A DNA stretch of 64,000 bases. Origin: Escherichia phage vB_EcoM_NBG1. Both the position numbers and the translations under genes were made by a program. Within the stretch, counting starts at the first letter, position 1. The number at the start of each line of letters is the position of its first letter. Below, one piece after another: positions 27,574 to 28,257 of this stretch. Under the pieces are notes generated by a model. It had not been told where the DNA came from and did not search any database. It saw only the letters and a list, made by a program, of their open reading frames with translations. The stretch lies in sequence record MH243438.1; one strand, 5' to 3'.

Positions 27574-27605
27574 CTATAGTAACACATCCTACAGGAGAGT
27601 AAACA
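27574..27605 (-). promoter_or_regulatory. T4-type early promoter
   Basis: GTTTAC -35 and GTTACTATAG -10 on the - strand; upstream of the 122 aa ORF. Confidence 0.6.
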
Positions 27606-27634
27606 TCTTTTTTTAAACTTTTTCTGCCCTAAAC

Positions 27635-27662
27635 GCACAAAAGGGAGACCGAAGTCTCCCTA
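27635..27662 (-). terminator. Terminator after the 59 aa basic ORF
   Basis: - strand GGGAGAC-TTCG-GTCTCCC followed by TTTT. Confidence 0.7.
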
Positions 27663-27665
27663 AAA

Positions 27666-27845
27666 TTATGCAACAACCTTTCCAAAACGAGAAGCATCAT
27701 CTCGAAGAACTGCACGTGCTCTGCGCATGATCTTCTCAACGGTTTGATTAATACGAGAGTTCGACCCACGCTTGTATCCAGCGCGTTTAGAGGTACCATC
27801 AACTTTCTTTTCAACTGCTTTCTTTGCTTTAGCTTGTTTTGCCAT
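27666..27845 (-). CDS. Hypothetical small lysine/arginine-rich protein (not in ORF track)
   Basis: Hand-translated 59 aa (MAKQAKAKKAVEKKVDGTSKRAGYKRGSNSRINQTVEKIMRRARAVLRDDASRFGKVVA); SD AAGAG upstream; terminator hairpin right after stop; replaces the track's 27629-27814 ORF. Confidence 0.5.
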   Translation of the reverse strand: MAKQAKAKKAVEKKVDGTSKRAGYKRGSNSRINQTVEKIMRRARAVLRDDASRFGKVVA

Positions 27846-28008
27846 TATAAATTCTCTTTAAATGAAAATGCAGGACTTATTGACATTGCCTGCGCAAGCC
27901 CTCAACGGGAACATAGGTTTTGGATATTTAACGACAGGATAACCATAAACCCGTCATCATACCTACCATGACTTACACAGCTAACCTTTTGCTGACGCAT
28001 GATAGCAA

Positions 28009-28257
28009 TTATTTCAAAGTAATAACAAAATGACGAACTGCTTTGCGTGCTGCAGAAGCCAGAGGCTTAGCATATTTCAATTCATCTTTAGCTTCCAGTT
28101 CAGAAGCCAGAGTAGCCTGAGCAGGATTCAGGTGTTTGAAATAACGCAGGATTTCCAGTGCTTCGGCTTCAACATCAATTGACGCACCGTAGTTTTCGTG
28201 ACCGTTATTCCATGCGTTGCGTTGCAGTTCAAGAGCGTGTTGTAATTGTTTAATCAT
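28009..28257 (-). CDS. rIII: Lysis inhibition accessory protein rIII
   Basis: 82 aa; MIKQLQHALELQRNAWNNGHENYGASIDVEAEALEILRYF... matches remembered T4 rIII. Confidence 0.9.
   Translation of the reverse strand: MIKQLQHALELQRNAWNNGHENYGASIDVEAEALEILRYFKHLNPAQATLASELEAKDELKYAKPLASAARKAVRHFVITLK

Follow-up and report, generated by a model that had tools for sequence, protein, structure and literature searches.

The gene considered here is already known. In bacteriophage T4 it is called 30.9 and has been carried as a conserved hypothetical since the T4 genome was annotated, and its expression in vivo, together with that of rIII, was reportedly studied by Driukas and Nivinskas in 2003 (cited in PMC9409239). 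A second T4 system that bears on what follows is gene 32, whose product, gp32, exerts autogenous translational control at a pseudoknot in the leader of the gene 32 mRNA. The promoter-early stem-loops, or PeSLs, of other T4-type phages (Arbiol et al. 2010, PMC2839356; Comeau et al. 2014, PMC4122927) are also relevant. In T4, rIII has early, middle and late promoters, and its product RIII binds ribosomal protein S1 and damps the cleavage of early mRNAs by RegB (PMC9409239). The T4 30.9 transcript has been detected and classed as early, and the gp30.9 protein was not detected in a time-course proteome (PMC9697503, Table S2). This non-detection is weak evidence against translation, since a 58-aa protein consisting to 30% of lysine and arginine gives few usable tryptic peptides. 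Furthermore, in a genome-wide dCas13d knock-down (CRISPRi-ART), T4 30.9 was classed as 'Not Fit' (score 0.04, p 0.26), a label for genes whose knock-down does not measurably change plaque-forming fitness (PMC11879866, supplement); the gene is dispensable in laboratory conditions. As a whole, the literature on gp30.9 comprises just gene lists, one expression reference and a 'no fitness effect' entry.

How does the present locus compare with its T4 counterpart? In the window, by which we mean the whole 64,000-nucleotide stretch that was analysed, the open reading frame list, a profile match and the codon score point to a 59-codon gene on the minus strand at positions 27666-27845, stop codon included (ATG at 27845-27843, TAA at 27668-27666), with the product MAKQAKAKKAVEKKVDGTSKRAGYKRGSNSRINQTVEKIMRRARAVLRDDASRFGKVVA. 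Residues 1-57, that is, nearly the full length, match the profile of PHROG 1427 ('unknown function') with E=2.4e-31; 65 homologues were found with E-values down to 1.6e-26, and a homology search with the 59 residues, a check proposed in the initial annotation, showed them to be conserved, with tblastn matches in 1006 phage records. The surrounding 901 bp are 98-99% identical to RB69-like (Mosigvirus) coliphages, and by this resemblance the source phage is a Mosigvirus, that is, an RB69-like T4-type phage. Phages SA79RD and Mizar encode an identical 59-aa protein, which is annotated there as a gp30.9 homologue, while the syntenic gene in the T4 RefSeq record is 30.9 itself (T4p212, NP_049823, 58 aa, 'conserved hypothetical protein'). 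What is more, Tequatro-, Mosig-, Jiaoda-, Dhaka-, Karam-, Moon-, Gelderland-, Mosuguk- and Roskildevirus all have the gene order 31-rIII-30.9-30.8, and in hundreds of T4-type genomes 30.9 has been called in this same position. Profile match, synteny and strand, as well as length and motif, all place the protein in the T4 gp30.9 family, and we have very little doubt that the ORF is a real gene and the orthologue of T4 30.9. In other words, the initial annotation was correct in calling the gene unannotated as far as the supplied ORF track goes, and incorrect beyond it, the gene being annotated in the T4 RefSeq record and in many others. The T4 protein also has an older entry, P17310 ('Uncharacterized 11.1 kDa protein in Gp30-rIII intergenic region'), which is a 97-codon call with a start further upstream. 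In the window such an extension is impossible, because a stop sits four codons 5' of the ATG.

That this frame is the coding one is borne out by its codon usage and by its pattern of substitution. The initial annotation had suggested scoring the coding potential of both overlapping frames, and the outcome favours the 59-aa frame: on a codon log-odds score trained on 38 long ORFs of the window it reaches +32.5 bits, a value typical of the true 59-codon windows of the genome (27 +/- 10) and not reached by any off-frame window, against -23.8 bits for the 61-aa frame at 27629-27814, which lies below every in-frame window. Among 39 distinct orthologous coding sequences of 30.9 the median dN/dS is approximately 0.3, and codon position 3 is variable in 51 of 53 columns, compared with 34 and 30 for positions 1 and 2.

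The next gene upstream, in the same transcription unit and on the same strand, is rIII (28009-28257, minus strand), which encodes the lysis-inhibition accessory protein (PHROG 1457, E=2.6e-43; annotated as rIII in close relatives), and downstream follow 30.8 (Pfam Phage_30_8) and 30.7 (Pfam Phage_T4_Gp30_7). The gene does stand directly after rIII, and the signals that the initial annotation had read from its flanks, namely an SD-like AAGAG, a clean ATG and a GGGAGAC-TTCG-GTCTCCC terminator behind the stop, are all in place. The AAGAG lies at 27858-27854, on the minus strand, 8 nt before the ATG; its context, AAAGAGAAUUUAUA-AUG, is common to T4 and the RB69-type relatives, and other genera have GGAAGA at the same distance. 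Five nucleotides past the TAA, at 27661-27636 on the minus strand, A-GGGAGAC-UUCG-GUCUCCC-U forms an 8-bp stem with a UUCG loop (-14.1 kcal/mol), followed by UUUGUG as its U-tract. A G+C-rich hairpin with a T-run also follows 30.9 in T4 and in Jiaoda-, Dhaka-, Karam-, Moon-, Gelderland- and Mosugukvirus; the position is conserved in 8 genera and in all Tevenvirinae loci examined, with stems that differ among relatives (GGGAGAC, GGACTCC, GGGACTC, GGGACTCC and others), and in phage SA79RD the hairpin is annotated as a rho-independent terminator. An unchanged position with varied stems is the pattern expected of a conserved terminator, and judged by this pattern the hairpin is one. That said, a generic terminator scan did not list the hairpin at 27661-27636. 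This looks like an artefact of the scan's stem-extension and T-count rule and not like absence of the hairpin, since the A-U extension of the stem, we think, takes one U from the counted tail.

Approximately 35 nt past the terminator and in front of 30.8, the sequence GTTTAC-N17-TACTATAG (27574-27604, minus strand) can be read as a putative T4-type early promoter of 30.8; GTTTAC is also seen after the terminator in T4, LilPanda, Moon and a Proteus phage. The two elements would make up a putative terminator-promoter junction between 30.9 and 30.8. The gene content past this junction varies, phage LZ9 passing from 30.9 straight to 30.6. Our picture of the unit is one in which 30.9 is the last cistron of rIII-30.9 and is translated after a structured leader of 163 nt, the strong intrinsic terminator closes the unit, and 30.8 appears to restart from an early promoter of its own.

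The structured leader upstream of 30.9 was an unplanned finding, and it is more unusual than the gene itself. The spacer between rIII and 30.9 measures 163 nt in the window and 108-416 nt across 46 distinct loci, which is long for such dense genomes. It has the make-up of a mosaic, its conserved blocks coming in different orders and combinations from genus to genus. Namely, the window has M4, M5 and M6 (each occurring only once within its 64 kb), T4 has M1-M2-M5-M6, Jiaodavirus M7-M5-M1-M3-M6, and Karam- and Moonvirus M3-M5-M6. M4 (27962-28007, minus strand) folds at -13.0 kcal/mol into a two-tier hairpin with an outer stem CUAUCAUG/CAUGGUAG and an inner stem CAGC/GCUG, for which compensatory versions were read by eye in relatives (CACG/CGTG, CAGA/TCTG and a different outer stem, GCTCTA/TAGAGC). 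M6 (27860-27912, minus strand) comprises a hairpin CCC-GUUGA-GGG at 27909-27899, a stem-loop GCAGG/CCUGC at 27893-27870 and a U-rich tract AUUUUCAUUU at 27869-27860, which ends just before the SD. Its closing stem exists in at least six complementary versions (GCAGG/CCTGC, GGGAGC/GCTCCC, GAACTGG/CCAGTTC, GGGAAC/GTTCCC, GGTGGA/TCCACT and GGCGA/TCGCC), and its make-up suggests a weak terminator, an attenuator or a stabilising hairpin. In relatives, M2 is an element of 88 nt and M3, which the window lacks, is one of 136 nt (locus L005, 912-1047); M3 is found in 407 phage records, with a single copy in each genome and 90-100% identity between genera, and its multi-stem fold shows compensatory changes in 18 of 40 predicted pairs.

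As for M5 (27909-27962, minus strand), an alignment of 30 sequences gives an H-type pseudoknot in which P1 pairs 27956-27950 with 27938-27932 and P2 pairs 27944-27941 with 27919-27916, with a conserved connecting loop, GUUAAAUAUCCAAAA. In the same 30 sequences from which the structure was derived, 81.5% of cells are paired, against 38-50% when the 3' partners are slid, and 62 cells show two-sided changes, a number that falls to 9-16 with slid partners; the covariation is 0.358, against at most 0.12 in controls, and none of 500 shuffles reaches the observed value. The share of paired cells is 86.7% for helix 1 and 77.4% for helix 2, and 7 of the 16 pairs are changed on both sides, the signal being carried by pairs 13-35 (UA 18, AU 11, GC 1), 14-34 (CG 17, GC 10, UA 3) and 24-53 (GC 22, AU 8). 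Since U-G pairs are frequent, the structure can be assigned to the strand of the genes. P2 has just 4 bp in the window and in T4 (GGUU/AACC) and 7-9 bp in other genera. On this comparative evidence M5 is an H-type pseudoknot, with both of its helices supported by covariation.

Searches of Rfam 15 at relaxed thresholds with M4-M6, and with M2 and M3 of relatives, returned matches at chance level (all E>1 for the leader), and tRNA scans of the leaders called none. We also considered whether the modules could be kin of the T4 stable RNAs C and D, to which they bear no similarity, and whether the conserved AUGAUG of M5 could open a short upstream reading frame; the latter idea was rejected, as neither the frame nor its stop is conserved and some phages lack the AUG altogether. 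The older, 97-codon version of T4 30.9 crossed both M5 and M6, and since indels break that frame in relatives, the conservation of the two modules is not of the protein-coding kind. If confirmed, the leader modules, absent from Rfam as they are, would be new phage RNA motifs in one of the best-studied genomes.

Turning to the protein, its 59 residues include 10 lysines and 8 arginines against 3 aspartates and 2 glutamates, giving a net charge of +13, a pI of 11.35 and a mass of 6.56 kDa; it is as strongly basic as initially stated. The gp30.9 family is recognised by a length of 53-65 aa and by S/T-K-R-A-G-Y-K-R-x-S-N-x-R-I/V followed by an Arg-rich helix, and the present protein has these marks; in front of the motif lies a Lys/Ala-rich N-terminal tail whose length and sequence vary among homologues. 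In Tevenvirinae the last 40 residues hardly vary (SKRAGYKRGSNxRINQTVEKIMRRARAVLRDDASRFGKPKA), and a second form of the C-terminus (...PLADQLASRARKVIAHDAAFGNPRKKA) is seen in the group of Karam-, Moon- and Gelderlandvirus. RxGYKRxxNxR is kept even in homologues that are about 40% identical, and R21, G23, Y24, K25, R26 and R31 are invariant in the most divergent set. An AlphaFold model built on a 31-sequence alignment (mean pLDDT 67) shows one long helix at residues 30-54 (pLDDT 82-89) and low confidence over the N-terminal 30 residues, and the Lys/Ala tail is predicted to be disordered. The hydrophobic residues of the helix, I32, V36, I39/M40, A43 and V46/L47, are conserved and lie 3-4 positions apart, making it amphipathic.

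How widespread is the family? An exhaustive HMM search of 1.84 billion representatives returned only 17 proteins, and 16 of them are 55-92 aa long, begin with M-A-K and carry R-x-G-Y-K-R-x-[ST]-N-x-R-[IV]-[DN] followed by an Arg/Lys-rich helix. The remaining one, P0067, is a repetitive 617-aa protein with 8 short matching stretches, which we treated as a compositional artefact. Most of the homologues found in this way follow gp31 (Cpn10) and rIII (Pfam Linr3), or adjoin DNA ligase, in T4-type phages; in Pseudomonas phage PspYZU05 a version of 92 aa comes immediately after gene 31 and has a plain early promoter in front of it, and a few metagenomic contigs have a homologue in other contexts. 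A homologue is also present in Salmonella podovirus 7-11 (Grimontviridae), which is unrelated to T4. In 185,579 bacterial and archaeal genomes, one per species, there was no relative of gp30.9, and the family seems restricted to phages and subject to horizontal transfer. With a 40-residue core that is near invariant across eight genera and transferred to an unrelated podovirus, 30.9 is among the most strongly conserved T4 'hypotheticals'. Such extreme conservation, combined with dispensability in the laboratory, is the usual signature of a function in host interaction or counter-defence.

Similarity searches offered little guidance as to what that function is. Neither the 59-aa protein nor 15 divergent members of the family match Pfam or NCBIfam above sub-threshold noise, and the same 15 members gave no match at E<=5 to the Pfam family of lambda N-type antiterminators. 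A PDB search with the family profile found no relative, and a resemblance over 25 residues to a helix of SlmA in that search (E=0.15) was treated as chance. Foldseek runs with the AlphaFold model against PDB and BFVD gave no match, and no such comparison could be informative for a model consisting largely of a single helix.

The reading we favour, with only modest confidence in it as a whole, is that the 30.9 orthologue encodes an accessory nucleic-acid-binding factor for which RNA is the likelier target. Taken part by part, binding to nucleic acid of some kind is probable, because a basic arm, an invariant motif and an amphipathic helix that may dimerise are typical of peptides that fold on nucleic acid. 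The suggestion of nucleic-acid or ribosome binding that the initial annotation drew from composition is thereby a plausible one. In particular, the disordered Lys/Ala tail, the RxGYKRx[ST]NxR motif and the Arg-rich amphipathic helix would together do the binding, and the protein would fold on its target. This target would more probably be RNA, be it phage or host mRNA, the translation apparatus or possibly the structured leader of the gene itself; an RNA or translation target is a tentative assignment, and a DNA target would be less expected still. Three circumstances make us lean towards RNA: 30.9 is preceded by a conserved structured leader, the co-transcribed neighbour encodes RIII, which acts on S1 and RegB cleavage, and in phage 7-11 the homologue adjoins a region with a tmRNA-like tag. 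It should be noted that the RNA or translation reading is circumstantial, built as it is on composition and neighbouring genes, and that an amphipathic helix preceded by a basic region would suit DNA binding just as well.

If RNA is the target, gp30.9 could be a ribosome-associated factor sitting on a site of the rRNA or the mRNA channel, as do ArfA, the SmpB tail, bS21 and hibernation factors, where it would tilt translation towards phage mRNAs or deal with ribosomes that have stalled on cleaved messages. We regard this as unlikely in this specific form. Its size and charge are typical of small ribosome-associated factors, and the neighbour RIII targets ribosomal protein S1 and RegB-dependent mRNA cleavage (PMC9409239). 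In addition, the homologue of phage 7-11 sits among a tmRNA-like element and tRNA genes: just upstream of it there is an unannotated stretch of approximately 700 nt with two tRNA-like T-arm/acceptor ends and a tmRNA-like tag, GCA AAU GAU AAU GCG UUC CGA GUA GCA GCU UAA or ANDNAFRVAA* (locus L012, 2675-2707), and downstream there is a tRNA-Cys. However, this context comes from one genome and from a sub-threshold Rfam score (tmRNA_permuted, 29.6 bits, E=8e-4, gathering score 47). Apparent resemblances to ArfA ('KGKGSYMRKGK'), the SmpB tail, bS20 and bS21 did not survive profile comparison, hhalign giving probabilities of 0.06-0.3% against ArfA, bS20 and bS21, and membership in the ArfA, bS20 or bS21 families is ruled out by these values. 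Moreover, gp30.9 has no ribosomal-protein Pfam match, and no PDB chain, ribosome complexes included, matches the family.

Would a DNA target serve as well? Here gp30.9 would be a very small protein of the 'basic region plus dimerising helix' type, one that coats or bends DNA and that might, for instance, affect the host nucleoid or transcription or counter a DNA-sensing defence. The basic segment stands directly before an amphipathic helix whose conserved hydrophobic residues are spaced 3-4 apart, and the early expression of 30.9 is shared with the T4 modifiers of nucleoid and transcription. There are also weak coiled-coil or zipper-type echoes in Pfam (LZ_Tnp_IS481 and HR1, E 0.03-0.07), yet these lie far below threshold, gp30.9 has no significant similarity to any DNA-binding family, and the genomic associations of 30.9 favour RNA over DNA. 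On balance, we find this improbable.

More doubtful is the idea that gp30.9 acts on its own leader, either by translational autoregulation through M5 and M6 or by arginine-rich antitermination of the lambda N type at the M6 hairpin and U-tract. The setting is suggestive: a pseudoknot supported by covariation and a covarying hairpin followed by a U-rich tract lie directly upstream of 30.9, leader and gene travel together in most Tevenvirinae, and gp30.9 combines small size, basic charge and extensive disorder with an Arg-rich helix. However, module order and content differ among genera, M5 lies more than 300 nt from the start codon in LilPanda, and the interrupted U-tract after M6 would make a weak terminator at best. 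The protein, for its part, has no detected similarity to lambda N or to any RNA-binding family. What is more, some phages that bear a homologue have no structured leader, as in two loci with a 9-nt spacer (L079 and L080) and in PspYZU05 with its plain early promoter, and for this reason gp30.9 cannot depend universally on the leader. An even more ambitious version, in which the spacer would be a set of undescribed, independently folding and shuffled RNA modules with gp30.9 as their dedicated partner, the two forming an RNP or an RNA switch that acts on translation or host defence, is speculative, and we give it little credence.

Finally, the notion that the real gene is the overlapping 61-aa ORF (27629-27814), or that the region is non-coding and conserved just for its RNA or terminator structure, is barely credible and effectively refuted: the ORF exceeds the length cut-off of the ORF track, and in the window its frame stays open over 71 codons, but the codon score lies under all true in-frame windows, the substitution periodicity matches the 59-aa frame, there is no PHROG or Pfam match, and the ORF starts with TTG, has no SD and reads through the terminator, while among 41 distinct orthologous loci its frame is closed by stops in 26 (most loci have 1-5 of them) and offers at least 55 open codons in the other 15. 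The initial preference for the 59-aa frame was sound. As a caution for the use of ORF tracks in general, a length cut-off here concealed a small gene familiar from T4, while a spurious ORF that overlaps it was listed in its stead.

With these points in mind, the locus can be set against the known systems. With ArfA, the C-terminal tail of SmpB and bS20/bS21, gp30.9 has in common its size, its charge, a predicted disorder plus helix and, in some genomes, translation-related neighbours; it differs in that there is no detectable sequence or profile similarity to ArfA or bS20/bS21 and in that its family is found in phages only. It may nonetheless work like a small ribosome-binding protein. The leader invites comparison with that of T4 gene 32, M5 likewise being of the H-type and lying 5' of a gene for a nucleic-acid-binding protein (presumed to be one in our case). 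However, M5 has no sequence relationship to the gene 32 pseudoknot and no Rfam match, and it is one of several shuffled modules, whose distance to the start codon ranges, in the case of M5, from approximately 60 nt to over 300 nt. The 30.9/30.8 junction resembles the PeSL cassettes (PMC4122927) in that a T4-type early promoter, a putative one here, lies within approximately 40 nt behind a terminator stem-loop. PeSLs, for their part, owe their definition to near-identical copies that recur within RB49-type and Schizo-T4 phages, and the likeness drawn here is to the 30.9/30.8 junction. The closest match by far is T4 gp30.9 itself (NP_049823, UniProt P17310). The two proteins are approximately 93% identical, at 58 and 59 aa, the few residues that differ being located in the tail and at the C-terminus (...GKVVA vs ...GKQKA), while their genes lie on the same strand in the same position between rIII and 30.8 and have in common both the SD context and a terminator directly after the stop.

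Within the window, the spacer between rIII and 30.9 harbours a mosaic of folded RNA modules (27860-28007, minus strand), which are conserved and show compensatory base changes across genera. Namely, this leader of 30.9 comprises a hairpin (M4), an H-type pseudoknot (M5), and a block of hairpins together with a U-rich tract (M6), for none of which was a match found in Rfam. The genera of T4-type phages differ both in which of the spacer modules they carry and in the order in which these are arranged, i.e. the modules are shuffled from one genus to another.

Further elements of the spacer are seen in the relatives. In particular, M3, an element of 136 nt, lies between rIII and 30.9 in Klebsiella phage LilPanda (locus L005, 912-1047) and is also carried by the related loci L007, L008, L023, L024 and L033, among others. 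It is present in 407 phage records, always as a single copy per genome and with 90-100% identity across genera, and is absent both from Rfam and from the window. Its fold, as calculated with RNAalifold, is multi-stemmed and includes GAAA-capped hairpins, with 18 of the 40 pairs being compensatory. The unannotated M2 (88 nt) occurs in phage IME08 (L006, 922-1009) and in T4 (NC_000866, about 130.62-130.72 kb), is common to T4 and Dhakavirus, in both of which it occupies the rIII-30.9 spacer, and its predicted fold, at -24.3 kcal/mol, is a long, irregular hairpin.

In Salmonella phage 7-11, an unannotated gap of approximately 700 nt is located upstream of the 30.9 homologue (locus L012, 2290-3000, which corresponds to HM997019.1 82134-82844). 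Within this gap there are a reading frame that resembles a tmRNA tag, ANDNAFRVAA* (L012 2675-2707), a match to the Rfam tmRNA_permuted model at 29.6 bits, which is under the threshold, and two tRNA-like T-arm/acceptor ends (L012 2853-2880 and 2940-2966), neither of which was called by ARAGORN.

Turning to the protein itself, when the PDB was searched with a profile, residues 30-54 of gp30.9 (window 27684-27758), the predicted helix RINQTVEKIMRRARAVLRDDASRFG, weakly matched residues 138-162 of SlmA, a nucleoid occlusion factor (E 0.15), a resemblance that is probably due to chance. Remote homologues of gp30.9 were also observed in non-T4 surroundings, namely in a Logan SRR31860670 contig (L084, 1031-1222) and at L082 204-401; one of the two has a protein of the AIPR abortive-infection type, HMG-CoA reductase and UbiA as its neighbours, and the other has pilin-like N_methyl proteins. 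A protein of 92 aa, P0035, combines an E1-E2 ATPase-like N-terminus (PF00122) with the final 48 residues of gp30.9, and this fusion, coming from a very short ENA contig of 570 bp, is most likely an assembly chimera.

Many deposits (OR352946.1, OL964745.1, LR597660.1 and others) label the 30.9 ORF '1,4-alpha-glucan (glycogen) branching enzyme, GH-13-type', which for a 58-aa protein is obviously an automatic mis-annotation, while others retain the legacy name 'putative 11.1 kDa protein', derived from an over-long T4 call. In LilPanda, an annotated 57-aa ORF on the opposite strand (gp47, L005 1274-1447) overlaps in antisense both the terminator of 30.9 and the 3' end of the gene, and is, like the 61-aa ORF of the window, probably a spurious call.

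Finally, the 30.9 terminator is followed, ahead of 30.8, by a T4-early-promoter-like site, GTTTAC…TACTATAG (window 27574-27661 for the two together, minus strand), located approximately 35 nt past the terminator. The genes downstream of this junction vary, since phage LZ9 (L086) passes directly from 30.9 to 30.6. Judging from its sequence, the junction, with its terminator and putative promoter, is like the promoter-early stem-loop (PeSL) cassette known from other T4-type phages.
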